DNA of 64,000 nt from Mustelus asterias (taxonomy: Eukaryota), in NCBI RefSeq assembly GCF_964213995.1, contig NC_135808.1:25668001-25732000 (forward strand), written 5' to 3'. The position numbers and the translations under genes are program-made. Below, piece by piece: positions 8,034-58,574 of the stretch. The notes under the pieces are model-generated. The model ran no database searches and was not told where the DNA came from. It saw only the letters and a program-made list of their open reading frames with translations. Numbering within the stretch: position 1 is the first letter of the stretch; each line of letters begins with the position of its first letter.

Positions 8034-8077
8034 TGTTGCAACACGAATGACCCAGTTGACATTCCACGGGATATAAA
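8034..8077 (+). promoter_or_regulatory. Putative promoter of GPCR copy 1 (TGTTGCAACA palindrome plus TATAAA)
   Basis: Palindrome at 8034-8043 and TATAAA at 8072-8077. Same arrangement and spacing as upstream of copies 2 and 3. Confidence 0.6.
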
Positions 8078-9393
8078 TTAAAAGTTCTGAGAGCAATTTT
8101 CTATAACACAGAAGGAAACATCATTCTGCCCAAGACAAGAGACTTTTCACAGTGTCGAGAAAATATACTATATAGTTCTTGCCCTCATTGCTGTTCCTGG
8201 TAAGTGAAGCTGTGTTATCCTCTGCACAAGCTGTCCTCTGGTTTCGCATTGTGATGAATAATGTCAGTTGTCACAGTTACACAAATACCTGATATCTGAT
8301 GCCATGTTGGCAGTCAAATGTTGTGAATAACATCTCAAAGCTTAGTCCATTTCTTGAACAGGGCAAGGAACGCATTTGTAACTTACAGCTCTCTAAATTA
8401 TCAAGAAATTCCCTTGGTAGAATATCGCATACAGCTGAATTTCACAGACAAGAAACCCTCAAAGGGAAGATAAGTTTGGTACATTTATTCGTCCACATAA
8501 TGTGAATGTCGCGAGATAGACCTGTATTTTTATTTTCCATCCCTAATTGTGCTTCAGAGGGTGTTGGTAAGCCTCCCTCTTGGTGCACTGAATTCAATGT
8601 GGTGTAGATTCACCCACAGTGCTGTCAGGAAGAATGATTTGCGATTTTGACCCAGGGACAATGAAAAATACATGATAAAGTTCCAAGTCAGGCTGGTGCC
8701 GGACCTGAAGCAGAACTGCAGGTAATGATGTTCCCATGCAGCCGCTGCCCCCGGCCTTGCAGTTATTAGAAGTCGCTGGTTTTCTTTCAATATAAAAAGG
8801 AGTCCCGGTGAGTTGATTCACTGTATCTTGTCGACAGAACAACTGCTGCACTATGCGTCAGTGGTGGAGGGATCCAAAATTTCAGATGGTGGATGCGGTG
8901 CCACATAATTTGACTGCTTTCCACCAGATGAAGGCAAGCTTCTTGGATCTTACTGGAGGTGTACTCATTCATGGAGCGCATTCCATCATATGTCTCACTA
9001 ATCTCAACATTGCATGGATTCGTCATATCCTTTATGAATCTAATAGATGAACCAGGGAAATGTTTTACTGTCGATATCAGTCTGAGAATCAATGTATGAA
9101 GTGCAATATATTAATATTTCTCTGCTTGCTCTCAACAGTGAAAAAAACTGAAAGAGATGTCAAATACTGACAGGTAAGCGACAGGGCAGCAATTTTACTG
9201 TATTGGAATCCCATGGATAATGCCCTACACTTACTTGGAGCACAGTTACTGAAAATATTTTGCCTGTTTTGCTGCTAATTATCATTCTTTTCAACAACGA
9301 CCGAAAACTTTGTGCAACATGTGCGTTGTATTTTGTTTTACGATCTGGCTGTGATAGGGGTTGAATCTTGCCTAGTTATTCAATTTTACACAT

Positions 9394-10192
9394 CATAGAA
9401 CCATAGAACCATAGAAAATTACCGCTCAGAAACAGGCCTTTTGGCCCTTCTTGTCTGTGCCGAACCATTTTATGCCTAGTCCCACTGACCTGCACTTGGA
9501 ACATATCCCTCCACGCCCCTCTCATCCATGAACCCGTCCAAGTTTTTCTTAAATGTTAAAAGTGACCCCGCATTTACCACTTTATCCGGCAGCTCATTCC
9601 ACACTCCCACCACTCTCTGCGTGAAGAAGCCCCCCCTAATATTCCCTTTAAACTTTTCTCCTTTCACCCTTAACCCATGCCCTCTGGTTTTTTTCTCCCC
9701 GAGCCTCAGCGGAAAAAGCCTGCTTGCATTCACTCTATCTATACCCATCAAAATCTTATACACCTCTATCAAATCTCCCCTCAATCTTCTACGCTCCAGG
9801 GAATAAAGTCCCAGCCTATTCAATCTCTCTCTGTAGCTCAGCTTCTCAAGTCCCGGCAACATCCTTGTGAACCTTCTCTGCACTCTATCAACCTTATTTA
9901 CATCCTTCCTGGAGCTAGGTGACCAAAACTGTACACAATACTCCAAATTCGGCCTCACCAATGCCTTATATAACCTGACCATAACACTCCAACTTTTATA
10001 CTCGATACTCCGATTTATAAAGGCCAATGTACCAAAGGCACTCTTCACGACCCTATCCACCTGTGACGTCACTTTTAGGGAATTCTGTACCTGTATTCCC
10101 AGATCCCTCTGTTCAACTGCACTCTTCAGAGTCCTACCATTTACCCTGTACGTTCTACTTTGGTTTGTCCTTCCAATGTGCAATATCTCACA
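9394..10192 (-). mobile_element. 5'-truncated CR1 LINE with a (TTCTATGG)n tail
   Basis: ORF 9476..10183(-) is the RT C-terminus (ERDLG...LVRPNLEYCVQFWSP...LERRRLRGDLIE). Tail CATAGAACCATAGAACCATAGAA at 9394. Confidence 0.95.
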
Positions 10193-10901
10193 ATATCAGT
10201 TCATATTATTTCGCTAGGTCTGTCCTGAACATTACTCCTGTGTGTAGTGTTATCATGGTTCTGTATTATGCCGCAATAGAATGGTCTGTCTGGTTCACTG
10301 TCGTTTTCTCCTTTGATCAGTTTGTGGCCATTTCTTTGCAGAAGCTGAAGTCTAAATTTTGCACTGAAATAACGACAGCAGTTGTTTTAGTAACAACGGG
10401 CATTCTGATCTTTTTCAAGGACATACAATTCTATTTTACATTTGAACCTGGAGCGGGAATCAACAATGTCCCCTGGTTCTGTAATAAACGGGCAATCTAT
10501 TATACGGATCCTGCAGGGATGCAATTCGTTTGGTTTGATCAGGTTATGACCACATTGCTCCCATATGTTTTAATTCTGTTGCTCAATTCTCTGACAGTCA
10601 GATGTATTTTAATGACCAGTCGAGTCCATAAGGGTCTAAGGGGACAGAGCAAGGGAGATAATCACAGAGACCCAGAGATGGAGAGTCGAAGGAAGTCTGT
10701 GATTTTGCTCTTCACCATATCCGGCACTTTCATTCTTTTGAGGCTTTTATATGTGGTAGAATTCATAATTTGCAGTATTATAGGAATTCACCCCAAATTT
10801 AATAATCATGCTTTTTATATATTTACAGAAGTTTCACTTACGCTGTTGAGCTTGAATTGCTGTACAAATGCATTTATTTCTGGGGTGACTCAATCGAAGT
10901 T

Positions 10902-13728
10902 TCAGATACCTCGACAACTGGGGCTCCTTCTGGGGTAGGTGGGACCTCTACAAAGAGGATGGTCTGCACCTGAATCAGAGGGGTACCAATATCTTGGGGG
11001 GAAAATTTGTGAATGCTCTTCGGGAGGGTTTTAAACTAATTCAGCATGGGGGTGGGTACCTGAATTGTAGCTCCAGGTTGAGCGTAGTGAGGTCATGGAT
11101 GAGGTTTCAGGGTCGCAGGAGTGTACTGGCAGGCAGGAAGGTGGTTTGAAGTGTGTCTTCTTCAACGCCAGGAGCATCCGGAATGAGGTGTGTGAACTTG
11201 CAGCATGATTCCAGAGATTAGAAGAAAAGATTGCAAAGATGATTCTGGAAAGGAGCGAAAGTAACAGGGTAGTTGTACTGGGGGACTTTAGCTTTACAAA
11301 TATTGACTGGAAAAGCTATAGTTCGAGTACTTTGGAGAAGTCGGTTTTTGTCCACTGTGTGCAGCAAGGCTTCTTGACACAGTGTGTAGATAGACCAACA
11401 AGAGGCGAGGCCACATTGGAAATGGTACTGGGTAATGTATCAGGCCAGGTGTTAGATTTGGAGGTAGGTGAGCACTTTGGTGACAGTGACCACAATTCGC
11501 TTACGTTTACCTTAGCTATGGAAAAGGATAGGTATATACCAAAGGGCAAGGTTTATAGCTCGGGGAAAGGAAATTATGATGCGATTAGGCGAGATTTAGC
11601 TGGCATAGGTTGGGGAAGGAAACTGCAGGGGATGGGCACAATTGAAATGTGGAACTTGTTCAAGGAACAGCTGCTATGTGTCCTTGATAAATATGTACCT
11701 GTCAGGCAGGGAGGAAGCAGACGTGTGAGGGAACCGTGGTTTACTAAGGATGTTGAATCTCTTGTGAAGAGGAAGAAGGAGACGAATGCAAAGATGAGAC
11801 GTGAAGGCTCAGTTCGGGAGCTTGAGAGTTACAAGTTAGCCAGGAAAGACCTAAAGAAAGAGTTAAGAAGAGCCAGGACGGGACATGAGAAGTCTTTGGC
11901 AGGTAGGATCAAGGAAAACACTAAAGCTTTCTATAGGTATGTCAGGAGTAAAATAATGACTAGGGTAAGATTAGGGCCAGTCAAGGAAAGGAGTGGGAAG
12001 TTGTGCGTGGAGTCTGAAGAGATAGGAGAGGCACTAAATGAATATTCTTCGTCAGTATTCACACTGGAGAGGGACAGTGTCGAGGGGAGTACTGAGATGC
12101 AGGCTGTTGGACTGGATGGGATTGAGGTTCATAAGGAGGAGGTGTTAGCAATTCTGGAAAGGGTAAAAATAGATAAGTCCCCTGGGCCGGATGGGATTTA
12201 TCCTAGGATTCTCTGGGAGGCTAGAGGGGAGATTGAAGAGCCTTTGGCTTTGATCTTTGGGTCGTCATTGTCTACTGGAACAGTGCCAGAAGACTGGAGG
12301 ATAGCAAATGTTGTCCCTTTGTTTAAACAGGGGAGTAGGGACAACCCTGGTAATTATAGACCGGTGAGTCTTACTTCTGTTGTGGGCAAAGTATTGGAAA
12401 GGATTATAAGAGATAGGATTTACAATCACCTGGAAAGGAATAATTTGATTAGGGATAGTCAGCACGGTTTTGTGAAGGGTAGGTCGTGCCTCACAAACCT
12501 TATTGAGTTCTTTGAGAAGGTGACCAAAGAGGTGGATGAGGGTAAAGCGGTCGATGTGGTGTGTATGGATTTCAGCAAAGCGTTTGATATGGTTCCCCAT
12601 GGTAAGCTTTTGCAGAAAATACGGACTCATGGGATTGAGGGTGATTTAGTGGTTTGGATCAGGAATTGGCCAGCTGGAAGAAAACAGAGGGTGGTGGTTG
12701 ATGGGAAATATTCGTCCTGGAGTTCAGTTCCTAGTGTTGTACCGCAAGGATCTGTTTTAGGGCCACTGCTGTTTGTCATTTTTACTAATGACCTGGATGA
12801 GGGCATAGAAGGATGGGTTAGTAAATTTGCGGATGACACTAAAGTCGGTGGAGTTGTAGACAGTGCGGAGGGAAGTGGCAGGTTATAGAGTGACATAGAT
12901 AAACTGCAGAGCTGGGCTGAGAGGTGGCAAATGGAGTTTAATGCGGAAAAGTGCGAAGTGATTCACTTTGGAAGGAGTAAGAGGAATACAGGGTACTGGG
13001 CTAATGGTAAGATACTTGGTAGTGTGGATGAACAGAGGGATCTGGGTGTCCATGTGCATAGATCCCTGAAAGTTGGTACCCAGGTTGATAGGGTTGTTAA
13101 GAAGGCGTACGGTGTGTTAGCTTTTATTGGTAGACGGATTGAGTTTCGGAGCCAGGAGGTCATGATGCAACTGTACAAAACGCTGGTGCGGCCGCACTAG
13201 GAGTATTGCGTACAGTTCTGGTCGCCGCATTATAGGAAGGATGTGGAAGTGTTGGAAAGGGTGCAGTGGAGATTTACCAGGATGTTGCCTGGTATGGTGG
13301 GAAAATCGTATGAGGAAAGGCTGAGGGACTTGAAGTTGTTTTCGTTAGAGAGAAGAAGGTTAAGAGGTGACTTAATAGAGGCATACAAGATGATCAGAGG
13401 ATTAGATAGGGTGGATAGTGAGAGCCTTTTTCCTCGGATGGTCATGGCTAGCACTAGGGGACATAGCTTTAAATTGAGAGGTGATAGATATAGGACATAT
13501 GTTAGAGGTAGGTTCTTTACTCAGAGGGTATGAGGAGCGTGGAATGCCCTGCCTGCAGCAGTAGTGGACTCGTCAACATTAAGAGCATTCAAATGGTTAT
13601 TGGATAAACATATGGATGATATTGGAATAGTGTAGGTTCGATGGGCTTTAGATTGGTTTCACTGGTCGGCGCAACATCGAAGGCCGAAGGGCCTGTACAG
13701 CGCTGTAATGTTCTATGTTCTATGTTCT
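10902..13728 (+). mobile_element. CR1 LINE (ORF1 C-terminus, internally deleted EN, RT, tail) inserted in the GPCR copy 1 C-terminus
   Basis: WGSFWGRWDLYKEDGLHL (esterase end) and FNARSIRN, then RT ORF 11239..12888 with [17 protein letters not shown] and KFADDTK, and a (TTCTATG)n tail. Flanked by AAGTT at 10897-10901 and 13729-13733 (TSD). Confidence 0.95.
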
Positions 13729-14444
13729 AAGTTCAGTGATCAGTTCATTAATGCAGTGAAGTATTAATTTACATCAACGATTCAATTACTTATGAAACAA
13801 AACAACTGAAAACAGACCTGAGGCAGCGAAGGGTGAACATCTGAGAATATAAATCAAGTATTTTTAAGTTTTAAAGTGTATTTAATTGTGTCACAAGTAG
13901 TCTTACATCAACACTGCAATTACAGAGCACGGGAGGGGCAGAGGGCGCTGGAGAATGCGATATAGATAGGGAGGAATATAGGTTTTCGAGGAGGTGACAG
14001 AAATATGAAGGATGTAGAAGTTGCAGGAAAAGATTGATAGTGATGAATGTAGGGGCTGAAGGAGGTATCAAAAATATGAGGGGTGTTCAGATACGAAACG
14101 GGAGGGGTACACGTGAGTGAAAAGTGTTTCTGGATGGCCCGGAATATACATCTCTCACCTGTTTCCACCCTTCGTTTACCATGGAGATTGATTCACAGAA
14201 ATTCTTCTCACGAATTGCACTGCCGCGGAGGCTACATGACCTTAAGCAAAATTCAGGATCAGCAATATAACAAGTCTTGTCATGGGTTGCCAAACTGAAG
14301 TCGGTGATTAGAACCTTTAACTTGGAAACAGAGAGTGGGCAACCACTTCCAACCTCAAATTAGACATACACCTCCCATTTTAAACGGTTGATATTGTCTT
14401 ATTCCACATTCTTTTTGAAACTGTCTGTCTCTTTCATTCCTTGC

Positions 14445-14581: not shown

Positions 14582-15899
14582 CTTTGCCTGTCTCTCTCCC
14601 CCTCTCTCCATGGAGTTCAGGTTCAAGCTGTCGTGTTGATTTTCCTTCGTGTTTTCAACTGCTAATGTCAAGCAGCCTTGCCTGCATCTGAATTCTAGCT
14701 AAATCAAACTGCTTTACAGCAGTGTTCGATATTCCCATCTTCTACTCAAAATGCTATGCCATTGCCTCAAATATATCTGCTCCCTAAAACTCAGCTTTTA
14801 AGTCCATCCTCAAAATCATTATTCTATTGTGATTGATCGAACTTTGGTTAACTCATTCAGGGATATATCTTCTCTACCCAGCAAAGTCATAGTTATCGGC
14901 AAGTCATTCTGCTTTTCAATAGATATCGGAAAATCCACCATTAAAATCTTGTCAGTCTCAATCTGAGCAAATTCCAGCACGAGTGTTTTTCTGTGGATTC
15001 GAAATCCTGCAAGAGTCTCCAGTTTACGTTACTATCTGGTTATGGAAAATTATTTTAATTTTTATTAAAGCAAACACAGTTCAAAACCCCATTCAGCCAC
15101 TCGTGTAAAGAAGCTACTTCGTTTCACAGATTAAAACCTAGGATTCAAAATAATGCTCCCCCACCTTTAATTATTGCCACGTATCCATGTATTTCACAAA
15201 CCACTCCATTCACTATGCTGGCAATGTTCCTGGGTTTCTATAAACTTCAACCTGCCGACCTCGAGATATATGTGCTTCCCCTGGCTTCCTCTGTGCTCAA
15301 AGCGTCTCCAAAATGCAACCATCCATCTTCCACAGACTTTAGAACTTGCGAGGATATCTTTTCAGCCATGAATGTCGGGGATCCTGCACAAGACTCCCAA
15401 CGCTTTGCTGTATGCTGGAAACCAGACAGTGTCCAAACTGAAAACATTCACCCTCTCCCAGAAAACACACGATCAATTGAAACCAATTAATATTTGTTCA
15501 GCTCTGCCCATTTCCAAGAAGAGTCGGCCTTCGAGGCAACACTGAAATTGTTTGAATTCATGTAGCTGTACCTCCAAGAACAGTTATGCAACACTGCGAG
15601 CCTGGCTGGCGGACAAACTTAAATTAGTTTTAACATAATTCTTGGTACATGGTAGATTATTTATGAAATTTTGAGAAACGATAATGTGTCCCAAGTTACA
15701 TTGATTCTATGAGCCGACAACATTTGTGTGTCCTGGAAGCTATGCCTATTAAAAACAAGAGTGTAGTGCTTTGCAGAACAAAAGAACAAGTCCAAGCATT
15801 GACCCTGTTTTAACTAAACAAAATTCATGACAGTTATTTGTTCACTCATTCCTCAGGACAATTCCTTGGCAAATCAGGTGCAATCAGCCTTGCTTCTGG

Positions 15900-16460
15900 A
15901 TCAAATTATGCTTGGGCATTAACTGACGGTCAACCTTTTGCACTCTCTATTACAATCCATCGAAAAAGCAGGCAAAACGTGTCAAACAATCAGGACAACA
16001 TCCAACTGATAATAGTATTCGTGTGAAGTGGCCTGATGAGTGAAAGACTAACACTCAAGTACTCCAATAATAACCGAATATTAAAGCAAAATAGTGCAAA
16101 CGTCTAAATTGCTGTACCTCATTCACAAAATATTCCCTCTCTCTTCACTCAGCACTGGCATCACTCGCTCACTCAGACTATCTCTCTCCAGGGAAATCCC
16201 TGGCCTGTCCCTCGTGCATCAACTTCAATACTGCTCCCACAGTGCGAACAAACAGCGGGCCTTTGTTGTCGAAGAGGTGATGGAAGGGATGGAACCATCT
16301 GTCACTATGATTCTGCCGATGACCAAAAAGAATAGGGCAATCCGAGAAATGTTATACAATTTCGTCAGTGTGATCAAGCAATGCAATTGAAAAGGTATCT
16401 AGCCAAATTTCCTTGTTAGAAGCCATTTGTATCCGTAAAAAACCGCAAAACATTGGTCAA
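15900..16460 (-). pseudogene. Possible degraded delta-group (P2Y/HCAR-like) GPCR remnant, paralogous to 35035-35415
   Basis: Antisense fragments NVLRFFTDTN, FQLHCLITLTKLYNISRIALFFLVIGRII and TTKARCLF. The DNA aligns by eye with 35040-35300. Multiple stops and frameshifts. Confidence 0.35.
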
Positions 16461-16499
16461 CTATCGAAAGTGATTTATTTAAACTTCCAGTTCACAAAA

Positions 16500-16812
16500 T
16501 TACAGAATCCCGATAGTGCAGAAGGGCGCTATTCGGCCCATCGAGTCTGAAACGACGAAGTTCCCACCCAGGTCCTATTCCCGTAACCCCACTTATTTAC
16601 CCTGCAGACCCCCTGACACTCCTGGGCTATTTTGCTTGGCCAATTAACGACCGTACATCTTTGGACTGTAGGAGAAGCCCGGAGCACCCGGAGCAAACCC
16701 ACATAGACACAGGGACAATGTGCAATCTCCACACAAACAGTCACTCAAGGCCGAAATTGGGTTCCTGGCGCTATGAGGCATCAGTGTTAACCACTGAGCC
16801 GCCATGCCTCCC
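16500..16812 (-). mobile_element. HE1-like V-SINE (older, diverged copy)
   Basis: Antisense tRNA-like head GGCATGGCGGCTCAGTGGTTAAC, the V-domain and a CR1-type tail. Confidence 0.85.
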
Positions 16813-17904
16813 ACATTAATGCACTTTATCACAAATTAAATCAACATTTGTAATCATGTCAACAATTGGAGATAATTTGTGAAACATTTTACGTGATTAA
16901 AAATATGCTGCAGAGTAAAACGACAAGCATGGTGTCGTTAAAGGGAATTTTCTGAGCTGCTTACTCCAGGAGGGAGTATGACTTTGCTACTCCTAGTATT
17001 GCTCCGTCATCCACATGGACCTCTGTGTTCACACAGGACTGAAAATTTCGATGGAAGATCTGAAAATGTGTAAGCAGCATTTTTGACCATTATTTGCTGG
17101 ACAGATGTGATAGAACAAATATTGATGGGACATAAACCCAAGAGCATCGGAATGAATCAAGCCAAAGGCAAGATAAACATAACACTAGTGAAGTTAGAAG
17201 TTTTAGAGACTGGTGAACTTTTGAGCGAGGTATAATGTCCCGAAGATTGCTGGGCTGGCCACGCAACAAAACAGTTTTGGTGAAGGACAGAAAGATACGT
17301 TCAATATTTGGAAACACAGTTGGACAAGTGTGCAGACCCAGGTATAAAAAGGAGAGCAGATTGAAGCAATTCCACCCTTGAGTCTTCTTCGCAATTTAAC
17401 TTCATCCTGCAAAACCTTCTGTCTCAGGGGAACTTCCCTGCGCTATCTCCACACCTCTTGACATTTTTAATATCTACAAATCCAATGATACCCATGTCGT
17501 ATATAGATTCAGTGACTGAGCATAATAACGTTCTGTTGTAGAGAATCCAAGGATTCAGCACACTCCGAGTGAAGACATTTCTCTGCATCTCAATCTTAAA
17601 TGGCCTTCCCCCCTAATCATGATAGTATCCTCTGTTTCTCGACACATCTACCCCCTCTAGACCGCCACCGCACCCCCACCCAGCCCCAGCACAAGCCCCA
17701 GCCCGGGAAACATCCTTCCTGCATGTGCCATGTCGAATCCTGCAAGATTTTCTGGCACCAATCAGAGCATCTGGCATTTACAAAACTCAAGAGAACATGG
17801 AGCCGGTCTCCTCAATATCTTCTGATGGAACAATCTTTTCACCCACTGTTCAGCTTGGAGAACAGTCTTTGCATTCAATCTATGGTCAGAATATCGGTCA
17901 AAAA

Positions 17905-18256
17905 ATGGTAGCACGGTGGTTAGCGGTGCTGCTTCACAGCTCCAGGGACCTGGCTTCGATTCCCGGCTTGGGTCACTGTCTGTGTGGAGTTTGCACATTC
18001 TCCTCGTGTCTGCGTGGGTTTCCTCCGGGTGCTCCGGTTTCCTCCCACAGTCATAAGATGTGCGGGTTAGGTTGATTGGCCATGCTAAAATTGCCCCTTA
18101 GTGTCCTGAGATGTGTAGGTTAGAGGGATTAGCGGGTAAATATGTAGGGTTATGGGGGTAGGGCCTGGGAGGGACTGTGGTCGGTGCAGACTCGATGGGC
18201 CAAATGGCCTCTTTCTGCGCTGTAGGGTTTCTATGATTTCTATTCTATGATTTCTA
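17905..18256 (+). mobile_element. HE1-like V-SINE, nearly full length
   Basis: tRNA-like A/B boxes (TAGCACGGTGG; GCTTCGATTCC), V-domain GTCTGCGTGGGTTTCCTCCGGGTGCTCCGGTTTCCTCCCAC and a TTCTATGA tail. Absent at the homologous unit-3 site (~41880). Confidence 0.92.
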
Positions 18257-18388
18257 ATATCCCTTCCTCCTGTCAGAAGACCATAGCTGCACACAAGTTT
18301 CAAGGTGTGGTCTCCTCAAACCACCAAGCAATTGCAGAAAGACCAAACTTACCACCAGCAATATCGTTGGATAGGCGATGGCCTAGTG

Positions 18389-19237
18389 GTATTATTGCTA
18401 CATATTCCAGAAACTCAGTTAATGTTGTTGGGACCAGGGATCGTATCCTGCCACGGCTGATGGTGGCATTTGAATTCGTGAAACTATGGCCAATCACAGT
18501 AAAAACCCATCTGGTTCATTAATGTTCCTTACGGAAGGAAATCTTCCATCCTCGCCTGATCTGCCCATATGTGACTCCAAAGCCACAGAAATATTGTTGA
18601 CTCTCAGCTGCCCTCTGAAATGGCCGAGCAAACCATTCAGATCACCAGCAGCTTCTCAAGTTCAATTGAAATCATGAAGGTTTACAGCATGGAATCAGGC
18701 CCTTTGGCACAACATGTCCATGTCACACAGCTTTTTCCCACTAAGCTAATCACAATTGCCTGCATTTGTCCATATCCCTGTACACCCAGCATATCCATAT
18801 AACTCTCCAAATGCCTTTTAAAAGACAAAATTGAACACGCCTCTACTATGATCTCTGGCAACTCGTTCCAGACACACACCACCCTCTGAGTGACAAAAAA
18901 AATGCCTCTCTGGTCCCTTTTGTATCTCTCCCCTCTCACCTGAAACCTATGTCCTCCAGTGTTAGACTCCCCTATGTTTGGGAAAAGATGGTTAGAATCT
19001 ACCTGATCCATGCCCCTCAATATTTTATAGACCTCTATAGATTCTACTGGAAGCCTCCTACCCTCCAGGGAAAAAAGTCCCATTCTATCCAACATCTCTC
19101 TGTAACTCAAACCATCTGGTCCCGGTAGCATCCTAGTAAATATTTTCTGCACTCTTTCTAGTTCAATAATATCCTGAATTTGGGATGGGCAATAAAGACC
19201 AGTCAGCGACGCCCATGTCCCACGAATGAATAAAAAA
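18389..19237 (+). mobile_element. Second tRNA-derived SINE family with a family-B LINE tail, split by a CR1 fragment
   Basis: Head TGGCCTAGTGG, core AAAACCCATCTGGTTCATTAATG...GAAGGAAATC...TGTGACTCC and tail GATGGGCAATAAA...CAGCGACGCCC. An uninterrupted homologue lies at 41984-42343, and a further fragment at 63910-64000(-). Confidence 0.7.
18672..19172 (-). mobile_element. CR1 LINE 3' fragment
   Basis: ORF 18682..19152(-): FTRMLPG...GLFSLEGRRL...FFVTQRVVCVWNELP. Confidence 0.88.
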
Positions 19238-40410: not shown

Positions 40411-40462
40411 TCCGGAGAGCGAGCCGACACAGGGAGAACGTGCAAACGCCACGCAGACAGTT

Positions 40463-40713
40463 GGGGCGGCACGGTGGGTACAATGGTTCGCACTGCTGCC
40501 TTACAGCGCCAGAGACCCGGGTTCAATTTTTGGCTTGTGTCACTGTCTGTGTGGAGACTGCACGTTCTCCTGGTGTCTACGTGGGTTTCCTCCGGGTACT
40601 CCGGTTTCCTCCCACATTCTCAAATACGTGCGACTGTGGCGACGAGGGGAATTGCTCAGTAGCTTCATTGCTGTGTTAATGTAAGGCTTGCTTGTGACTA
40701 ATAAATCAACTTT
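40463..40713 (+). mobile_element. V-SINE variant nested inside an antisense HE1 copy (host pieces 40410-40461 and 40723-40793)
   Basis: GGGGCGGCACGGTGG head, V-domain and alternative tail. The host SINE is the unit-3 counterpart of 16500-16812. Confidence 0.85.
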
Positions 40714-43700
40714 GAAACACTTCAAGGCCAGAATTGAACCTGGGCCCCTGGCTATGAGGCAGCAATGTTAACCACTGAGCCACCATACCTCCCACACTGT
40801 TGCTCTTAATCACCAATTAAAAGAGCAATTGAAATTATTTCAACAATTGGAGATAGTTTGTGATTTTTTTAATTGATTAAAAAATATGCTGCAGAGTAAA
40901 ACTACAAGAATGATGTCCTTGAAGGATATTTTACTCCAGGAGGGAGTATGGCTTCGGTATTCCTACTGTTGTTCAGTCATCCACATGGACCCGTGTTCAG
41001 ACAGGACTGGAAATCTCGAATGCAAATTCTGAAAAAGTGTAAACAGCACTTTTGACCATTGTTTGCTGGATAGATGTGACAGAACAAACATTGATGGGAC
41101 ATTAATCCAAGAGCAGCGAAATGAATTATCCAAAGGCAAGATAGAACCAAGAGCAGCAGTAAGTGAAGACACAGCATTTACGAAGTTAGAAGCTTTAGAG
41201 ACTGGTGAATCTTTGCACGGGGTATAATGTCCCAAACATTGCTAGGCTGGACGTGCAGACAACAGCTAAGTTTCGATGAAGGACAGAAAGATACGGTCAA
41301 CATTTGGAAACACAGTTTGACAAATGTTTGAACGCAGTAATACAAAAGGAGGATAACAGATTGAAGCAGGAGTTGGCCTTTCCATTCCTTGAGTCTTCTT
41401 CACAATTTAACTCCATCGTGGCAGCTCTTCTCTCTCAGTGGAACTTCCCTGCCCTATCTCCACATCTCTTGATGTGTTTCAACATCTTGAAATCCAATGA
41501 TACCTCTGTCGAACATATTCAGTGACTGAACCTAATCTCGTTCTGTTGTCGAGAATCCAAGGATTCAACACCTTCTGAGTGAAGCCATTTCTCCTCATCT
41601 CAATCTTAAATGGCCTTCCTTTAATCATATCAGTATAAGTATCCCTGTTTCTAGACACACCTATCCCCACCACCACCCATCCCCAACCACACCCCAGTCT
41701 GGGGAACATTCTTCCTGCATCTACCATGTCGAATCCTTAAAATTTTCGGGCACCAATGAGATCACCTGTCAATTACGAAATTCAAGAGAATACAGGGCTG
41801 GTCTCGCAATCTCTTCTGATATAACAATCTTGTCACCCATTGATCAGTTTGAAGAACTGTCATTGTATTCAATCTATCGCCAGTGTACCCCTTTCTCTGG
41901 TAAGAAAGCACAACATTCCAGGTGCGGTCTCCCCAAACCTTTATGCAATTGCAGAAAGACAAAAGATACCATCAATGGAGGTTGGGAGGTGATGGCCGAA
42001 TAGTACTACCACGAGACTATTAATCCAGAAACTCAGTTAATGTTCTGGGGACCAGGGTTCGAATCCCACCATAACTGATGGTGGCATTTGAATTCTTGAA
42101 ACCTCAGGCAATTGCAGTAAAAACCCAACTGGTTCACTAATGCTTCTTATGGACAGATGTCTGCCATCCTTACCTGTGTCCGGCTAATATGTGACGCCAG
42201 AGCCACAGTAATGCTGTTGCATCTCAACTGTCTTCTGACATGGCCTAGCAAACCATTCCGTTCACCAGCTCCTTATCAAGAACAAATAGGGATGGGCAAT
42301 AAATTCTATGGATGGGCAATGAAGGCTCATGAATTGTTAAAAATATGCTTTCCCGCGTTCCAGCTTTCAGTGACTCATGATCAAGGACATCCATGGCCAT
42401 TTTTGGTATCAATACTTTCCAATCTCACCCCATTAAGAAATATTCTTCAGTTTTGCGGGGTTTTTTTGTTTCTTAACAAAGTTGATTCCTTCGCATTTTT
42501 CCACATGATATAACATCAGCCATGTTATTATCTATTCACATAGCCTGCCTAAATCACCCAGAAATCTCCTTCCGTCATCTAACTACTAATTCAAACATAG
42601 AAATAATCAATTTCGTCCCTACATTCAAATCATTGTTATATATTTTGAATAGCTGGTGCCCAATCGCTAGTTGTTGCAGTATTCCACCAGTCAGAGTCTA
42701 AAACCTCAGAATTATCCATTTATTCCAACTCTCTGGGCCATAACTTCTGTGGGGTGACACAGGATGTTACGGCCTCGCTCGACCCGAGACTGGAAAATCC
42801 CGCACGAGGTCAACGGACCTTCCCATTGTCCGCCCCTCGCCTGTTCTGATTCACATAGCGGGCTGGTCGGTAGAATTCCGGCATAACAGTCAGATCGACG
42901 TTCCACTCCTTGCTGGTTTTGCACAGTTCTCGAGTAGACTTTAGATGTAGGTGCTGTGAGAAATATGAAGCATGCTCTGTTCCTGAGTCCTTCCAGTATG
43001 TGATAGCAGCGTCGGGGCAAATGAAGCAATCTCATTGTGTACAGCACTGACTGCCACAAACCAGGGAGTTTAAGGATCCAGCTAATTTAAGAAATCAGCG
43101 AAAAAGTAAGAGTGTCAGTTAAGTGCTTGAAATGGGTGGATGGTTGGGCAACCGGCAGTCGGGGATTAGGCATGTAGTTGATTTGGCAGAAATTTAGTGC
43201 AGCGGGTGAGGAGGTCGTAGCATGTTTGGGAGAGTAGCCGGGGTGGGGAAGCCAGGGGGTTAGAAAGGTGGTCAGTGATTTGGGAGGGTGGTCAGCGGCT
43301 TGGGTATGAGGTCGAGGCTGTGGGCTGGATGACAAATATAGTCAGCGAGTGAGGTTGGCCGGAAATCAGAGGTGAGAGACCTCAAGGGATTGGGGTTTGG
43401 TCGGGTCGTCGCAGAGTGGGGAACAAGTGAGGCGTTCATGAAGACCTGCGTTCAGATGGGGAGGCCAGAATAGAAAATAAAAGGAATTAGATCGCAATCC
43501 ATGGTCTATTGGGACCAAATTAATCTCTTGATTATCAAAAGCCACGTGTAATAGGAACTGATGCAATTCATTCAGCCAGGTTGCAGTTCAATAAGATCAT
43601 GGTAGGTATGCTTGCATTTCGATGAACCCCCAATACTTTAAGGTGCCTCATCCCTGATTTCTGGCGAACCCCACTCCCTGACAATATCCGTCATCCAGCC

Positions 43701-44559
43701 GTCGACCGCAAATAATGTTTGATTCTCTTGCCTCAAATGAATCTATCCACCTCCAAAGTAAACAAATATCCAATGCCCCGCCTCCACCTTCTGCTAAACA
43801 AGGATTTCCAGCTTTGTACTCTGAGAGATTTATTTTTGATGCACATAAATTGGTCTGGGAAATTTTAATTTGTTCTTCTGCTTCTATGCAGAGGTCCCTT
43901 AATTTTGATTGAGGTGGGGAGTGTATATTCTGAGAGCTTGAAAGATCCGCAATATATTTCTCTGGCCTTTATTTCTTTGTTTTCTGGTGTGAGCATCGCT
44001 GGCTTGGCCAACATTTAATGCCAATCCTGAATTACCCTTAAGCTGCCATCTTGAGTTGCTTCAGTTGATGTGGTGTTGGTACACCCAGCGTGCTGTTAGG
44101 GTCGGCATTACAGAATTTCCAATCGGGATGCAGAGTGATTGATGGAAGATTAGCATGTGGCAATGTCCCCAGGTACCTGCTTCTTCTCCATGGTAAATGT
44201 CCTTTGTTTTGAAACGGCTGAACACGAAGCCTTGGTGAGTTCATGCCGTGAATTCCGCAGATGGGATACATTGCTTTCACTCAACGTCTGTTGTGAAGAG
44301 AATGGATGGTTAATTTGATGGATGGAGTGTGGATGAAAGGAGTTGTCGTAGAATCATAGAGATTTCGAAAATTGAATGAGACTATTTAACCTCAAGTGCA
44401 TTACACAAGTGTCAGGCAATAGCCATCTCCCACAACAAATAATCTACTCATCTCTCTTTACATTCAATGGCATTACGATCGCTCAAACATCCATAACTGG
44501 GAATTTTGCAGAAAATAACTCATCTCCTGAGTCGCCAAAGCGTCCTAACAAGGTGCAAG

Positions 44560-46027
44560 GCACCTTGATGAAATATGTTGTACAGTTAAATCAGAGTAGA
44601 GACCTCTCAGGGTTAAAATTCCCGGGGAAATATATGCCATTGTGGAATTAACGGTAAGTGACGCTGGAACAGCACTCAGGAAGCTTGACACCATCCAGGT
44701 CAAAGCAGTCGAGTTGATTGACACATCATCAACCACCTCCAATATCCACTCTAACCATGCAAAGCGACAGCAGTGTATACCAGCTGCAAAACGAACTGGA
44801 GCAACCCACCAACTAAAGGTTTCGACAACATCTTCCAAACCCTCGACCTCTATCATTTGGAAGGACAACTGCAGCAGATACCTGGGAACACCACCATCTG
44901 GAACTTCCCCTCCAAGTCACTCACCATGCTAACTTGGAAATATATCAACAGTTCCTTGAATGTTGCTCGGCAATAATCCTGGAATTCCCTCCCCAACAGC
45001 ACGGTGGATGTGATTACACCACATAGCCTGCAGTGGTTCAGGAAGACAGCTCACCACCATTTTCTCATGGACAATGGACAATAGTCAATAAATGCTATTG
45101 CAGCCAGTGATATCCATTTCCGGTGAAAGAATTGAAAAACAGCAAAAACAAGCTTCATGCTCTGGGGAAATCCACTGGAAACGGCTTTGCTGCAGAACAA
45201 TCCATGAAAATGAAACTTGGTTACTTCCTTCCCGCAGATTTTGATTGAACTTGACACATTCCTGTGTATCTCCTGTGGTCCCTACTTTAACACGTCCACC
45301 TGCCCAGCTTAATTCGCTAAAACAAGCCGAGAACAGTCCACATTTCATTATGGGAGTGTTCTTTACTGGCTGAAAATTGTATTTCCGCGATACATTTTAA
45401 TGATTCTGCCAATTATGTGGCGTTTACTTAAGTCCATCCCAGTTAGTATTCGGGTCCTAGAAAACAACTACTATTAGTGCTCCATTGCTTTTGCAATTCT
45501 TACAGGATTATCTACAGATTTGCTCCTCGAGCTGCATCTGGGACACAGAAAGTTCACCCCTGGCTGTGTAGTCCCTGCATTGCTGTTCTTCAGTTCTAGC
45601 CACATAGTCTTCTTTGACGATCCCTCAAGCATGTGACAGTCATAATGATATCTTTCATTAGCACTGCAGCACCAGCCTGCTCTGGAAAACCCCATCTCAC
45701 CTGAAAACTCCAGGTCTGGAAACAAGCTCACACACCTTTTGCTGGTCCGTCAAATTTTCCATCAATCAATATCTGACTAATCCCGCAGCGAATGGAATGG
45801 GAAATATGCTCCTGTTGTGCTGCCATCCCTGTCATTCTTTAAGTGACTGTAAGGGTGTGAGAGCTATTTCGTTGTGCGCCGCTTAGAAAGATGGAGAAGA
45901 TGTAAGAATGAGAGGGTCACTGGATTTTAAATTTAGCACCTTGATGAAATATGTTGTACAGTTAAATCAGAGTAGAGACCTCTCAGGGTTAAAATTTCCG
46001 GGGAAATATATGCCATTGTGGAATTAA
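44560..46027 (+). repeat. 92-bp direct duplication (44560-44651 and 45936-46027)
   Basis: GCACCTTGATGAAATATGTTG...GCCATTGTGGAATTAA, 91/92 identical. Confidence 0.95.
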
Positions 46028-46910
46028 ACTGAAGGGTTGTAGTAGTTTGAGGATGCACTCGAACTATATAACCGTCCCGTCACAATTAAACAGGGCAGCC
46101 ACATCCCAGTGTTCAGTAGAAGAGCCCTGAGGGGACAGATCAAATTTAGAACGTAATTGTTGAATGGACAAGGGGGGAGTAACGTGATCACTGGAACACT
46201 TTGAGATCTAGAGATCGAGCAGATTGCATCTGAATGATTAACACCATTACTGGGAGAATGCCACGTCCAATTTTCATAGTTAATTGATTAATAATAATAT
46301 AAGAAGTTGGAGCGGGTATAAGCAATTCAGCCTCTAGAGTCTGTTCCGCAATTCGATATGATCATGGCTGATCTTGTGTCATCTCAACTCTGCATTCGTG
46401 CCCGTTCTCCTTAACCCTCCAGTCCACGACTAATTAAACATGTTTCTATCTCCTCCACAAATTCATTCAATGTCCCACTACCCACCAACCTCTTAGGCAG
46501 TAAATTCCACAGTTTCAGAAGCTATGAGAGAAGAAATTTTGCTGTACGATACCAGGATGCAGGCCATCAAACCCTGGGGACTTGTCTGCCTTCAATCCCA
46601 TTAGTTTGCTCAGCACCTTTCCTTAGTGATAATGATTGTTTTAGATCCTTCTTTCCTATTACCTCTACACTACCTGTTGCTATTCGGGTGGTACTTCTGT
46701 CCTCCACTGCTCAAACTGAGGCAAAGTACTGATTTGGGGTCTCCACCATTTCTCTGTTCTCCAGACTCATCCTCCGATGGCGTCCCATTCAGTGTTTATG
46801 GCTTTCCAGTGCAATCTCGGGACAAAAATATCACAAGGAGGACGTATCTCCCTAGTTGTCAAAATGTTTGCTCATTTTATTTTAAAAACTAAAGGAAGGC
46901 AAGTCGAACG

Positions 46911-46955
46911 ATGTTGCAACATGAGTGTCCCGATCGTGTTCCCTCAGGGTATAAA
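46911..46955 (+). promoter_or_regulatory. Putative promoter of GPCR copy 3
   Basis: Perfect 12-bp palindrome ATGTTGCAACAT (46911-46922) and TATAAA (46950-46955), 97 nt before ATG 47047. Confidence 0.6.
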
Positions 46956-47046
46956 TTAGTGGTCCTGTGAATGTAATACCTCTGAGCTTTACTTCGAGAG
47001 AGAGATTACCGACAGCACGAGGGGATTGACCATTCGCACATAAAGA

Positions 47047-47093
47047 ATGGAAACATTTCACATAATCAGGATAATATACTGTTGGTGTTCGTG
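47047..47093 (+). pseudogene. Frameshifted exon 1 of GPR139-like copy 3
   Basis: ATG GAA ACA TTT CAC...ATA TAC T|GTT GGT GTT CGT G|GTAAGT is 47 nt versus 64 nt in copies 1 and 2 (17-nt deletion). Splicing to 50649 gives TGT TAA, a 16-aa peptide. Confidence 0.85.
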
Positions 47094-49092
47094 GTAAGTG
47101 ACTATGACAACTGAATCTGTGTCAACCTGTGCAGCAAATGATTTCTGGTTTGATGCTGTGACAAATGCTTTCACTCCTGATATAAACGTCACTATTATAC
47201 AGGCACCTGGTTTGCTACCATTTTGTAAGTTAGATATTCTGAATCAATATCATGTTTTAACCCATTCCTTAAACAGGCAAAAAACCAACGGGTAACTCGC
47301 CATTGTCAAGTTATTTCATTTAGTGGAATATTATGTACAGCTGAATCAGAAAACCAGGGAATTCTCAAAGAGAAGATCTTACTGGACCTATTTCATTTAC
47401 TGGTTCACAGGATGTGAGCGCCACTGGCCAGTCCAGCATTTAATGTCCATTCCTGATTGCCCTTGAGGAGTTGGTGCTGAGCTGCCTTTTTAATCGTCTC
47501 CTGTCCATGTTTTTTGGATCCACCCACGAAGATGTTCGGAATGGTTTTCGACGATTTTGACCTATAGACGGTGAAAGAACAATGAAATATTTCCAAGTCA
47601 GGATGGTGTGCAACTTGGAGACGAGCTTGCAGGTGGTGTCCTTCCCATGGATTTGCTGCACTTGTACTTCTAGGTGATAGTGGTCACGACTTTTGATGGT
47701 GCCATTGAAGAAACCTTGGTTGTTTGCTCAATGTGTCGTGTACAAAGCAAACTGCTGCCATGGTGGACGAAGCAAATGGTTAAGATGGTTTATGGGGTTG
47801 CCGCATCAGTTGACTGCTTTACCCTTGATGATGTGGATTTTTTTTAAGTGTGTCTTGGTAGACCAGCTCTGATTTCGGCACTTGGAGACTATTCCATTAA
47901 ATGTCTGACTCATCTCTGCATTCAATGAGGCTGTGTCAATCCTCAAAAAAAACTAACAGATGGACAGGGGAATACGTTGGCTCCTTTCTCTCTCCACAAA
48001 TGCTGTCAAATCTGCTGAGTTTTTCCAGCATTATATGTTTTTTGATTCAGATTGCAGCAACCGCAGGAATATTTTTGGTGTTCACTAGCGTTTGTGAATT
48101 ACTGCATCAAGTGAAACATATTAATATTGCTGCGTTTCGTCTTGAACAACAGCAACTTAAATAAATGTGAACTAATTACTGACAGGTAAAAAGCTAAGCT
48201 GTACTGTATTCAAATTCACTGCAGAATGTCTTACCCTTATTCTGTGTACTGTTACTGTTAAGATTTTAGTTGTTTGACTGCTAATTGTCCCTTCTCCCAG
48301 CATCATCTGGAGAATCTAAGTGCTGTCTGTTTTATGATCTGTCTGTGATAGGGGCTGAATATTGGTCTTTTGTTGTAGAATTGTACACTTCTGTATCTGA
48401 TTAATATCTGATGGGTCAGTAAATATCAATGATTCAGAGTCTCCATATACGAAACCTGCATTGTACTCTGGTCTTAGCTCACCAAGATGTGACCCATCAA
48501 AGAAAGGCAAATATAACTGAAAAACATAGTCATGAAACAGAGATCAGTCCGACCACAGTAGGTGTTATCATGATTGAACTCTTTATTATTAAATGAATAT
48601 TGCACTGCTTCAGTAAGTAAACCAGCCCAAATCTGTGGTGTTAAAAATAACTTGGTTTTAATTAGTTTGTTTACATATATTCAAAATACACAGAACAGCA
48701 TTAAATTTAATTCCAAGAAACAACCTCTTTGGTTTGTGTCAGTATTCACGCTCCTCACGAGCCGATCCCCAACCTTCTTCATCGAATCCAGTCACCATAT
48801 TCTTCTTATGTTTTCGACCTCGCGTAACTGCCGAGTTTCCACTCCGATAAATCTGATCCCAGTTGACCGGGTTCGCCCTTCGAAAGATTCCCTCATTGAA
48901 GACAGTTACCCTTAAGGCGCTTTTGTATTTATTAATGACCATTTTATGGTGATAGTCCCTAAAGTTAGAGAGTCCACTACTTGGAAATAACTTCTCTATC
49001 AAATCCATTTATTACCTTACATCCTCCATTAGATTTGCCCTCAGCCTTCCTTTTTCTAATGAAAACGCCACAAATAATGTATTCCCTTCTTT

Positions 49093-49391
49093 GGGGCTGC
49101 ACGGTCCCATAGTGATTAGCGCTGCTGCCTCACAGCATCAGGGACCCAGATTCCATTCCAGCCTTGGGTCATTGTCTGTGTGGAGTTTGCATAATCTCCC
49201 TGTGTCTGCTTGGATTTACTCCGGGTGACCCGGTTTCCTCCCACAGTCCAAGATATGCAGGTTAGGTGAATTGGCCATGCTCAATTCTCCCTTAGTGTAC
49301 ACGATCAGGTACTGGATTGTGACGACTAGGGGATTTTCACAGTAACTTCATTGCAGTGTTAGTACACGCTGACTTGTATCTAATAAATAAA
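49093..49391 (+). mobile_element. V-SINE variant with the alternative tail
   Basis: tRNA-like head, V-domain and ACTAGGGGATTTTCACAGTAACTTCATTGCAGTG...AATAAATAAA tail. Absent in unit 2. Confidence 0.85.
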
Positions 49392-50648
49392 TATCAACTG
49401 CTCCTGGTGAAGCAGTTTGCACCTTCTTATGTTTCCCCACATATACTTTCCCCTTTAATAGAGACTTTACGTAATCTATTAATTAAAAAGTTTGATTTCC
49501 TACACACGTTTAATATGAAATTTCAAGCTCATTCATGATCTGAGAAACCTCTATTATGTCTGGCCTCAACCTACTTTGCTCCCTGTAAAAAGTTCAATAC
49601 ATTCTTATATTTGGGAAATGCATGTTCATCGAACACACGCACCCATAATGTACACATTGCAATGGATATTCTATATACATTTGTAATTTAAAAAATCCTC
49701 TGATTTTCAATAATTTTCCTTTAGAAATGAACATCGGCATCCCGTTTCAATATTTATGGTCTCATTAAATTACATTGTGATTGTATTATTTTGCAATCAA
49801 TCTGAACATCTGCAACCCTTTACAAGTTCCAGTATTTTCCCAATTATCTCCCACTTTCCATGCTCTGGCATTTGTTTGAACTTGATCCCCATCTCGCTCT
49901 TTCCCTCTCTCTTGTATGTGTTGATTCATGTTTCACTCCTCTGTGCTTCTGTTTTCTCCCTCTGATTTGGCTGCTGAAATCATCTATCACAGCCTGTCTT
50001 TCCCGTTGATGACTTGCTTTCTATGTTCCTTCTCCTCAATATTTCTTCTCCTCTGTATTATCTTTGCCTCTCTGAACTCACTATTCATTGTCCCTCCATC
50101 TATCCCTTCCCCATTTCAGCACTATTGCTGTTCCCCCTTTGCCCTTTTTCCCTCGTACCACTTGTTGTCCTGGTCTCTCTCTCTCCTCTCTTTCTTCCTC
50201 ACGCTCTCCTCTGCCTTCCATATGTTTTATCGCTTTACAATATAATACTTATTTTACATTTTCAGGCTCTAGATCCTCTTTCACTGCCTCATACTCTCCT
50301 AACTGTCTCACTTAAATTACGCTTTTTGTTCTGCTGGCAGTGGTACAATGTGGATGGACCCTTATGTACCTCACAATGACTTTCCTCAATTCCAAGTCCG
50401 AAGGCTCAGGCTTCACGGTTCGCACATGAAACGTGAAGAACCTGAAACCAGTTTCTTCACACTTCTTTGAAATATTGCAGTGCCGTGGTACTCACGCACT
50501 AACCCACTTCAGCTGAACAAAAAATGTGGTGAACTATGAGATTGTTCAGGGTTTGTGATGCAATATCGGGAGTTTTATACTGTGATCTGACATGGAAGAT
50601 GTTTCATCAGAAATTTCCAGTCAATTTTCCATTTTCTTTTTCTAACAG

Positions 50649-51559
50649 TTAATTTATTGGCGATTGTGATCCTGTCACGGGGAAAGTGCGGCCTTTCCCA
50701 CTGCACGACGCTTTACCTGGTGGCCATGGCAACAGCGGATTTAATGGTCATTCTCTTTTGGACAATATTGTGGCGGATCAATTCTTACTATTTCGCAGGA
50801 TCATTCCTGGACATCACTCCTGTTTGCAGTGTTATCATTGTTATGTCTTATGCAGCAACAGAATGTTCTGTCTGGTTCACCGTCACTTTCTCCTTTGATC
50901 GATTTGTGGCCATTTGTTGGCATCAGCTGAAAATGAAATATTGCACCAAGAAAACTGCAACTGCTGTTCTAGCAACAACAGGCATTCTAATTTCTTTAAA
51001 GGATATTCCATTCTACTTTACAGTTGAACCTGCAGAGGTACTTGACAATGTTCCCTGGTTCTGTAAAGAAAGATCCATCTATTATACTGATGCTGCATGG
51101 ATGGGATTTGACTGGTTTGATAAGGTATTAACACTATTCCTCCCATATGTTCTAATCCTGTTGCTCAATGCTCTGACAGTCAGATACATTTTAGTGAAGA
51201 GTCAAGTGCGTAAAGGACTTAAGGGTCAGAGCAAGGAATATAATCCCAGTGACCCAGAGATGGAGAGCAGAAGGAAGTCCGTGATTTTACTCTTCACCAT
51301 ATCTGGCACATTCATTATTTTATGGCTTGCATATATTATAGACTTCACCTTTTATAACATTATAGGCATTCATCGAGAATATTACAACGATGCTTTTTCT
51401 ATATTTGCCGAAATTGGGCTTATGATGCTCAGTTTAAATTGCTGTACAAATGCATTCATTTATGGGGTGACACCGTCCAAGTTCAGGGAGCAGTTCAAGA
51501 GTGCAGTGAAATATCCGGTTATATCAATTATTAAATTCTTGCGCAAACAAAACGACTGA
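50649..51559 (+). CDS. Intact exon 2 of GPR139-like class A GPCR copy 3 (end of TM1 to C-terminus)
   Basis: Strong acceptor TTTTCTTTTTCTAACAG|TT. The open frame reads NLLAIVILSRGKCGLS, AMATADL (TM2), TPVC, SVWFTVTFSFDRFVAIC (TM3), LPYVLILLLNAL (TM5), SVILLFTISGTFIILW (TM6), NCCTNAFIY..SKFR (TM7/H8). These motifs resemble GPR139/GPR142. Confidence 0.9.
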
Positions 51560-56037: not shown

Positions 56038-56040
56038 CGG

Positions 56041-56655: not shown

Positions 56656-56659
56656 ATTG

Positions 56660-58569: not shown

Positions 58570-58574
58570 ACCTT

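Follow-up and report, generated by a model that had tools for sequence, protein, structure and literature searches.

GPR139 signals mainly through Gq/11. It has been reported that the GPR139 gene has two exons, that its orthologues in bony vertebrates are 70-96% identical to mammalian GPR139, and that its agonist site is formed by E3x32, F3x33, H5x43, W6x48, R6x51, and N7x38 (PMC7318219). A separate GPR139, 81.3% identical to that of the mouse, and a GPR142 (58.7%) were reported in catshark (PMC13200729 supplement). The names GPR210A and GPR210B have been given tentatively to orphans of coelacanth, gar, and teleosts that lie near GPR139 and GPR142 (Rinne et al. 2019, PMC6504862). This is the only published mention that we found of extra vertebrate lineages in the clade, and the word 'shark' is absent from the available text of that survey. 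A previous report placed the protostome supergroup of MIP, proctolin, FMRFamide, and myosuppressin receptors as the sister of deuterostome GPR139/142 (PMC8557429). In this study, we analyzed a stretch of 64,000 nucleotides from the shark Mustelus asterias (contig NC_135808.1, positions 25,668,001 to 25,732,000; hereafter the window), in which an earlier note had described three same-strand, GPR139-like receptor paralogues. Both tblastn and a family profile run over all six frames confirmed exactly three G-protein-coupled receptor (GPCR) copies of class A in the window, all on the + strand, and the profile scan detected no fourth. All three are very probably dead. They appear to be pseudogenes that belong to a single tandem array within a chondrichthyan receptor repertoire, which we regard with considerable confidence as diversified, many-ligand, and distinct from GPR139.

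We examined the size of the family with exon 2 of copy 3 as the query. The search returned 1,709 clusters (90% identity) at E<=0.001, with 3,106 candidates. Taxonomy is known for the best 120 of the 1,709 clusters only; these were all shark proteins, nearly all named 'probable GPR139' or 'putative GPR139'. By hand count, the best 120 came from Heterodontus (70), Pristiophorus (19), Cetorhinus (12), Mustelus (6), Heptranchias (5), and five other species (8). The horn shark (Heterodontus) genes, at least 70 in number, lie on many different contigs and are all distinct at 95% identity over transmembrane helices (TM) 3 to 7. Cartilaginous fishes are reported to have 20-62 known olfactory receptor (OR) genes, the smallest set among vertebrates, despite many sensory neurons (PMC10869828), and the horn shark genes exceed the largest of these repertoires (62). 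Models of normal length made up 35 of the 70 in horn shark and 63 of the best 120. These 63 (318-336 aa, Met start) were taken as the intact set, and the other 57, which were fused, extended, or partial, were dropped. When the search was run without a word index, 115 representatives (50% clusters) fell below E 1e-30, and 15 of 16 divergent members looked up from this list were shark, skate, stingray, or chimaera proteins. The large birth-and-death repertoire that the earlier note had supposed was therefore borne out by the cluster counts, the distinct horn shark genes, and the dead copies in the window; copies are many rather than few, and no clade lies closer than that of GPR139. Database models P0001, P0004, P0011, and P0008 consist of fused neighbouring partial receptors, or of a histone H4-like segment joined to a receptor. 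Such models suggest that other sharks carry tandem arrays and that transcript support is weak.

The relationships of the family were examined in a careful tree of 24 rows, which did not include GPR139 and GPR142. The chondrichthyan family and a gene of amphibians and sturgeon grouped together with support of 100/100. Coelacanth, teleost, and gar orphans followed outward, and then amphioxus. Several family lineages were common to sharks, rays, and chimaera. The chimaera was nested in a 96/93 clade that excluded three shark lineages, which indicates that diversification predates the split of sharks and chimaeras. On sequence grounds, we place the family as a separate lineage, sister to the single-copy amphibian/sturgeon gene rather than a set of GPR139 duplicates, within a wider assemblage of orphans from vertebrates and amphioxus that are GPR139-like. 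The coelacanth, gar, and teleost proteins of the GPR210 kind are the next relatives, outside the chondrichthyan and amphibian clade, with individual proteins not tied to the published names. Among 10 distant representatives looked up, eight were named GPR139, one was FMRFamide-receptor-like, and one was unnamed, and the ESM Atlas agreed. The family thus falls in the broad GPR139/GPR142/GPR210 clade, with GPR139 as its nearest characterised receptor and the orphans as its nearest uncharacterised relatives. ESM Atlas neighbours include FMRFamide-receptor-like clusters, in which PF10324 (nematode Srw) is found in 17-59% of members. PF10324 had no match in P0006, an intact cloudy-catshark (S. torazame) relative, or in copy 3, and a precomputed match was present in one of the 120 listed relatives (P0089). 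The protostome supergroup, srw, and the Aplysia chemoreceptor candidates are distant from the family, and any likeness of role would be convergent.

The amphibian/sturgeon gene (P0229, P0290-P0309) is an apparently single-copy and seemingly undescribed orphan of frogs, salamanders, a caecilian, and sturgeon. It was found as one cluster per species, with 20 amphibian clusters (66-100%) and sturgeon (46%), and a word-seeded search gave no amniote or teleost match. Its products in Xenopus tropicalis (XP_031757816.1), Pleurodeles (XP_069092602.1), and Acipenser (RXM35349.1) carry the name 'probable GPR139' and are unstudied. The gene shares with the shark family the DPEM-RR-S-LL motif of intracellular loop (ICL) 3 and TM6, the disulfide pair, the short N-terminus, and D5.39. 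It differs in that its pocket is invariant and GPR139-like, P6.50 is kept, and each species has one cluster.

Database names imply that the shark genes arose as GPR139 duplicates and have kept the sensing of L-Trp and L-Phe, and GPR139 was indeed the best match in the PDB by sequence (E 2e-9 with a single sequence, 5e-15 with the profile). However, the family is only ~22% identical to human GPR139 (7VUG), below the identity expected of an orthologue, and a separate GPR139 and GPR142 exist in catshark, as noted above (PMC13200729). The score to GPR139 was 58.6 bits with the profile, whereas single-sequence searches gave 129 bits to a salamander orphan and 127 to a coelacanth orphan; three invertebrate proteins scored 71-79 bits. 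When the GPR139 agonist site was mapped by alignment onto the 63 intact members, only W6.48 of its six residues was invariant. The site aligned with H187 was D in 53/63, position 6.51 was Y in 46/63, and 3.32, 3.33, and 7.39 were hypervariable. Sensing of Trp and Phe cannot be assumed, since only one of the six agonist residues is invariant. The idea that these are GPR139 duplicates is largely refuted already, and we consider it extremely improbable. The GPR139-like identity proposed in the earlier note holds in the sense that GPR139 is the nearest solved relative by sequence, but the family is a distinct lineage.

The family resembles GPR139 (7VUG, 9M42) and GPR142 in having neither W4.50 nor P7.50, in the NxFxY-type end of TM7, in W6.48, and in the two-exon gene. 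In contrast to GPR139, which lacks the aligned TM3 cysteine, it has an invariant cysteine pair between C3.25 and extracellular loop (ECL) 2, and a longer, hairpin ECL2. Moreover, its ICL3 contains a conserved insert, P6.50 was lost in its main radiation, the GPR139 binding residues are not kept, and it comprises tens to hundreds of genes instead of one. Membership in class A was evident from the 7tm_1 domain, seven helices, and the D/ERY-type and TM7 motifs. An AlphaFold model of intact P0006 (predicted local distance difference test score, pLDDT, 91.5) showed seven helices and a beta-hairpin in ECL2, and it replaced an earlier model built from 55 close paralogues (pLDDT 58.5). The fold neighbours of the P0006 model were peptide receptors and GPR139, with tied top Z scores of 27.2-28.6 and no clear winner.

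We compared the family with the known chemoreceptors. The only Pfam domain found was 7tm_1 (in two of the three window copies and in P0006, P0157, and P0183), and the OR, V1R/ORA, T2R, V2R, and T1R domains were absent from them. TAAR and aminergic receptors carry a conserved D3.32. Position 3.32 in the 63 members was S in 18, L in 16, R in 7, I in 3, and other residues in the rest. There is no homology to OR, TAAR, V1R/ORA, or T2R beyond class A, and the family coding sequence, unlike theirs, has an intron in TM1. The family nevertheless shares with these receptors its tandem clusters, birth and death, short N-terminus, and conserved intracellular face. It is a large tandem multigene family with pseudogenes, in which the pocket is variable among paralogues and conserved among orthologues.

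Variation was then assessed across the intact set. ICL1, ICL2, the end of ICL3, and helix 8 were close to fixed. C3.25 and the ECL2 cysteine, as well as D3.49, R3.50, N7.49, and Y7.53, were present in 63/63, and 7.50 was T in 61/63. Among 55 paralogues, 40 columns were invariant and many were nearly so. The most variable helix positions were 3.29, 1.35, 3.32, 7.35, 2.65, 7.39, 3.33, 7.43, and 2.61; positions 45.49, 45.51, and 45.52 of ECL2 and pocket positions of TM2, TM3, and TM7 also varied. The pocket was defined as a list of 30 class A positions, and the numbering was set by anchor residues without bulge correction. On this definition, mean entropy was 1.50 in the pocket compared to 0.67 at 183 other helix positions (0/20,000 shuffles) and 0.98 at 73 other extracellular-half positions (p 0.0016). 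The excess was repeated within Heterodontus (n=35) and within Pristiophorus (sawshark, n=16).

The pattern was reversed in 22 amphibian orthologues, which were aligned separately from the shark sequences. Their pocket positions were the least variable (0.12 compared to 0.48 elsewhere), although mean identity was comparable in the shark and amphibian sets (72.6% and 76.2%). In the amphibian pocket, four of the six agonist residues of GPR139 are matched (F3.33, W6.48, N7.39, and R6.51, the last as K; each in 22/22). The surround of the shark pocket was frequently acidic, with D5.39 in 56/63, D5.42 in 53/63, D/E at 2.57 in 47/63, and D/E at 6.54 in 46/63. P6.50 was lost in the main shark radiation, and the expansion may have been accompanied by a change in activation mechanics. 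This proline is kept in the divergent members P0203, P0175, and P0174, two of which are the earliest-branching in the trees. The extracellular variability claimed in the earlier note thus emerged as variability focused on the pocket across the 63 intact relatives. As judged from these alignments, a variable pocket with a near-fixed G-protein face is the signature of a repertoire for many ligands and one pathway.

The family began to diversify before the shark-chimaera split and grew by tandem duplication to at least 70 horn shark genes. In intact members, the intracellular face is nearly fixed, the TM3-ECL2 disulfide and the hairpin ECL2 are retained, and the pocket positions vary. Based on these observations, we propose that each member would bind a different ligand and that all would signal via one shared G-protein pathway. 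By analogy with GPR139, this pathway would be Gq/11. In view of the hairpin, of the ancestral pocket, and of reports that amidated aromatic peptides bind and activate receptors of the protostome sister group (PMC8557429), the ligands are probably small peptides or amino-acid derivatives. The most likely role, and the weakest step, is external chemosensing, with receptors that would be expressed sparsely in a chemosensory epithelium such as the olfactory rosette or in oro-branchial or gut chemosensory cells. Repertoires of such shape and size are usually chemosensory. We favour a chemosensory role tentatively, because of this shape and size, the few OR genes for many neurons, and the precedent of nematode srw and Aplysia chemoreceptor candidates, which are reported to have arisen near peptide receptors (PMC3963977). 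More speculatively, the family could be an unrecognised seventh vertebrate chemoreceptor family, and the largest such family in sharks. Its recruitment, more than 300 million years ago, would have started from one receptor for aromatic peptides or amino acids, which amphibians and sturgeon retain as a single gene, and would have run in parallel to the srw and Aplysia expansions of protostomes. If true, this would remove the puzzle of many olfactory neurons and few receptors in cartilaginous fishes.

Several points weigh against this proposal. The 8-mer TTGCAACA that lies upstream of each exon 1 appears to resemble a C/EBP-type site more than an olfactory one. Monophyly of the chondrichthyan family has support of only 89/84, and GPR139 and GPR142, which were not in the tree, are placed by scores. 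The intact set consists of the nearest matches to copy 3, mostly from two species, and the shuffle p-values are optimistic because the sequences are related by descent. A variable pocket would fit immune receptors or relaxed constraint as well as positive selection, and the fixed pocket of the amphibian orthologue is as expected for an endogenous ligand. Nearly all catshark olfactory neurons were reported to be Go/TRPC2 microvillous cells, for which the authors invoke V2Rs (PMC10116579). The 50 most specific genes of a catshark brain and olfactory library, as reported, include no GPCR (PMC11979771).

The repertoire might instead serve immunity or barrier sensing, with receptors on leukocytes, on mast-like cells, on cells of the skin or gut, or on somatosensory endings that would detect microbial, parasite, or damage-derived peptides. 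Rodent MRGPR and formyl-peptide receptor arrays provide an analogy, with no homology claimed. Such a repertoire would carry signatures identical to those of a chemosensory one. The peptide-receptor architecture agrees with it, the frequent acidic residues around the pocket would suit cationic ligands, and the apparent likeness of TTGCAACA to a C/EBP-type site would point in this direction. Cartilaginous fishes are also reported to lack MAS1-related receptors (PMC8455134). However, no sequence link to chemoattractant receptors was seen, since the family profile matched only GPR139 at E<=1e-12 in the PDB, and the N-terminus would be too short for chemokine-type two-site binding. We regard an immune role as the main rival to chemosensing, although somewhat less likely.

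Recognition of reproductive or internal peptides, in which receptors of gonad, sperm, brain, or endocrine tissue co-evolve with the animal's own peptides or pheromones, appears clearly less probable. At least 70 distinct genes with frequent copy death would, on general knowledge, be unusual for hormone receptors, and we know of no matching expanded ligand family, for which no search was made. In its favour, the pocket of the sister gene is fixed and GPR139-like (F3.33, W6.48, K6.51, and N7.39 in 22/22), and the ancestral ligand was for this reason probably endogenous. Protostome relatives diversified alongside neuropeptides (PMC8557429), and expression of OR and V2R genes in catshark is reported to occur frequently in the testis and in further organs that are not sensory (PMC11979771). 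A largely non-adaptive history is in our view improbable too. In it, LINE-rich tandem arrays (LINE, long interspersed nuclear element) would drift in copy number, the majority of copies would be dead or silent, and the pocket would vary through relaxed constraint after duplication. This reading agrees with the death of 3/3 local copies in a region dense in LINEs, and with normal length in only 63 of the best 120 models, several being fused or truncated. It is opposed by the 40 invariant columns in 55 paralogues, by a ratio of nonsynonymous to synonymous substitution (dN/dS) of 0.31 between copies 1 and 3, by variation that targets the pocket rather than other extracellular-half positions, and by the several lineages common to sharks, rays, and chimaera.

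A full-text literature search, by which subscription journals are mostly uncovered, found no paper on this receptor family or its expansion. GPR139 terms were absent from the supplements of PMC12361510 (12 files), PMC8455134 (12/24 files), and PMC13188829 (8 files), and the available text of PMC10620051, PMC12361510, and PMC6368271 contains no mention of the family. A whale-shark genome paper reported a paucity of GPCRs in cartilaginous fishes (PMC8455134). The genes are already in public annotation, where the automatic name 'probable GPR139' conceals those of the horn shark, and a class A receptor repertoire is a known kind of system; what appears undescribed is the lineage as a repertoire. 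Irrespective of the ligands, surveys limited to the six known chemoreceptor families seem to have overlooked a large and diversified set of receptors. A probe for the whole family could be based on the conserved ICL3 sequence, and the Xenopus orthologue, being single-copy, would give access to the ancestral ligand. The interest rests with the family, and the three dead copies in the window are a record of turnover only.

The window is LINE-rich vertebrate DNA with a single N gap, and its closest proteins are those of catsharks and basking shark. The three copies share a two-exon plan, with a short exon 1, GTAAGTGA donors at 8200, 24929, and 47094, and a long exon 2. The tandem unit with copy 2 (15379..33686, +) forms a chain of collinear alignments to that with copy 3 (33687..52530, +); each unit is ~19 kb, and they are 69-84% identical. 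The parts of copy 1 that could be aligned to copies 2 and 3 were limited to the promoter, the two exons, and one intron block. The synonymous divergence (dS) was 0.29 between copies 2 and 3 and 0.58 between copies 1 and 3. On these values the array is judged to be an old tandem duplication.

A candidate promoter precedes each exon 1. Its two elements, TTGCAACA and the TATA box TATAAATT, lie at 8036 and 8072 in copy 1 (8036..8079, +), at 24735 and 24771 in copy 2 (24735..24778, +), and at 46914 and 46950 in copy 3 (46914..46957, +). Each 8-mer occurs three times on the + strand of the window, once before every exon 1. The spacing between them is 36 nt at all three copies, though the flank of copy 1 is otherwise unalignable. 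The TTGCAACA element may hint at the expressing cell type. The start of the array at 8034, as given in the earlier note, falls in the promoter of copy 1 and not in coding sequence.

In copy 1, the aligned start codon of the exon 1 remnant (8136..8199, +; donor 8200) reads CAA, and no in-frame ATG was found upstream. A truncated LINE 3' fragment (9392..10194, -; minus open reading frame (ORF) 10195-9479), which aligns with other LINE 3' ends and is presumably CR1-like, has approximate boundaries and occupies the place of the splice acceptor and the first 128 nt of exon 2. The exon 2 remnant (10195..10905, +) is open from ECL1 to the start of helix 8, with a tblastn identity of 67% to copy 3 and a 7tm_1 match at E 1.2e-9, and it carries the substitutions R3.50Q, W6.48R, and Y7.53S. 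A second LINE (10906..13728, +), recognised by RVT_1 (E 3.8e-28), an endonuclease, and its junctions, sits inside the helix-8 coding sequence and is flanked by a target-site duplication of ~8 nt. The displaced 3' tail of exon 2 follows at 13729..13809 (+), with an in-frame stop and a tblastn match at 13702-13806. Copy 1 grouped with the intact P0006, with a Shimodaira-Hasegawa approximate likelihood-ratio support (SH-aLRT) of 98.

Copy 2 has an intact exon 1 (24865..24928, +) of 64 nt, that is, 21 codons and 1 nt, which ends inside TM1 in phase 1. It matches the N-terminus of P0006, confirming a 21-codon exon 1. The intron contains a LINE (25777..27971, -) that was detected by self-alignment and reverse-transcriptase-like minus ORFs and has no counterpart in the copy 3 unit. 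A deletion of ~654 bp covers the exon 2 acceptor and the 5' part of the exon. The exon 2 remnant (30568..31320, +) has a 20-nt deletion across the end of TM3, a 1-nt deletion, an 18-nt insertion, and nonsense codons.

Copy 3 looks intact, and its exon 2 (50649..51559, +) is open to the stop, with 302 codons after the split codon and a 7tm_1 match at E 1.2e-23; P184L and Q297P occur at sites otherwise invariant. However, exon 1 (47047..47093, +) has 47 nt, 17 nt fewer than that of copy 2, and ends in phase 2, and it is therefore out of frame with exon 2. Read-derived contigs (runs X1 and X2, one sample, from which the window may itself derive) covered 46800-47121 with seven substitutions and no gap. 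Since the contigs span the site without a gap, the 17-nt deletion is not a consensus error, and the seven substitutions indicate that the spanning contig represents at least another haplotype. Just two alternative donors would restore the frame, both weak and each costing 8-10 TM1 residues. No alternative in-frame ATG was found in 46500-47093, no alternative acceptor in 50400-50800, and no second exon 1 in the intron, where a cassette exon lying deeper was not searched for. In run X1, the summed contig depth over exon 2 was far above that of the intron, and 17-26 contigs differed at four single exon 2 sites, compared to 1-4 at intron sites. This pattern hints at many related copies, and no copy number was taken from it. 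Copies 2 and 3 grouped with the small-spotted catshark (S. canicula) model P0002. That gene may also be without a usable exon 1, since the model starts inside exon 2.

These lesions bear out the pseudogenisation described in the earlier note: the copies were lost to LINE insertion and small deletions. Pairwise dN/dS values among the three pseudogenes were 0.31 (copies 1 and 3), 0.44, and 0.63, and a value of 0.31 even between two dead copies points to long purifying selection before death. Other claims of the note were partly upheld. The two-exon plan was present in all three copies, but the phase-1 TM1 intron was found in copy 2 while copy 3 is in phase 2. The very short N-terminus was confirmed by copy 2 exon 1 and the intact relatives, and so was the absence of the TM4 tryptophan (4.50 was C in 50, G in 9, S in 3, and L in 1 of the 63). 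DRF with NAFIY, which the note had assigned to the paralogues, is found in copy 3 only; copy 1 has DQF and NAFIS, both motifs are disrupted in copy 2, and the intact relatives have mostly NTFIY. Copies 1 and 3 carry the conserved ICL3 sequence DPEMESRRKSVILLF unchanged, but copy 2 has DTEVESRRKSVILLF in its place. Differences between copies 1 and 3 (ECL2 12/29, ECL3 5/12, TM6 10/27, ICL2 8/13, and ICL3 9/28) are not clearly concentrated in ECL2, ECL3, and TM6-7 as claimed, whereas such a concentration does exist, in stronger form, among the 63 intact relatives.

Further features were observed around the copies. One intron block (9080-9370, 28153-28353, and 48090-48364) can be aligned in all three copies at 66-69%; it has a donor-like CAG/GTAA in copies 1 and 3 and is a possible regulatory element or non-coding exon. 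The assembly gap of 137 N (14445-14581) lies between copy 1 and the copy 2 unit and could hide more copies. The profile scan gave no receptor sequence 3' of the copy 3 unit (52530-64000). A frame of 275 codons at 21701-22525 (+), with related copies at ~44650-45270, had no match in a Pfam search, and its end looks like a GIY-YIG endonuclease of Penelope-type elements. A further LINE with long open endonuclease and reverse-transcriptase frames was found at 53070-55629 (-).

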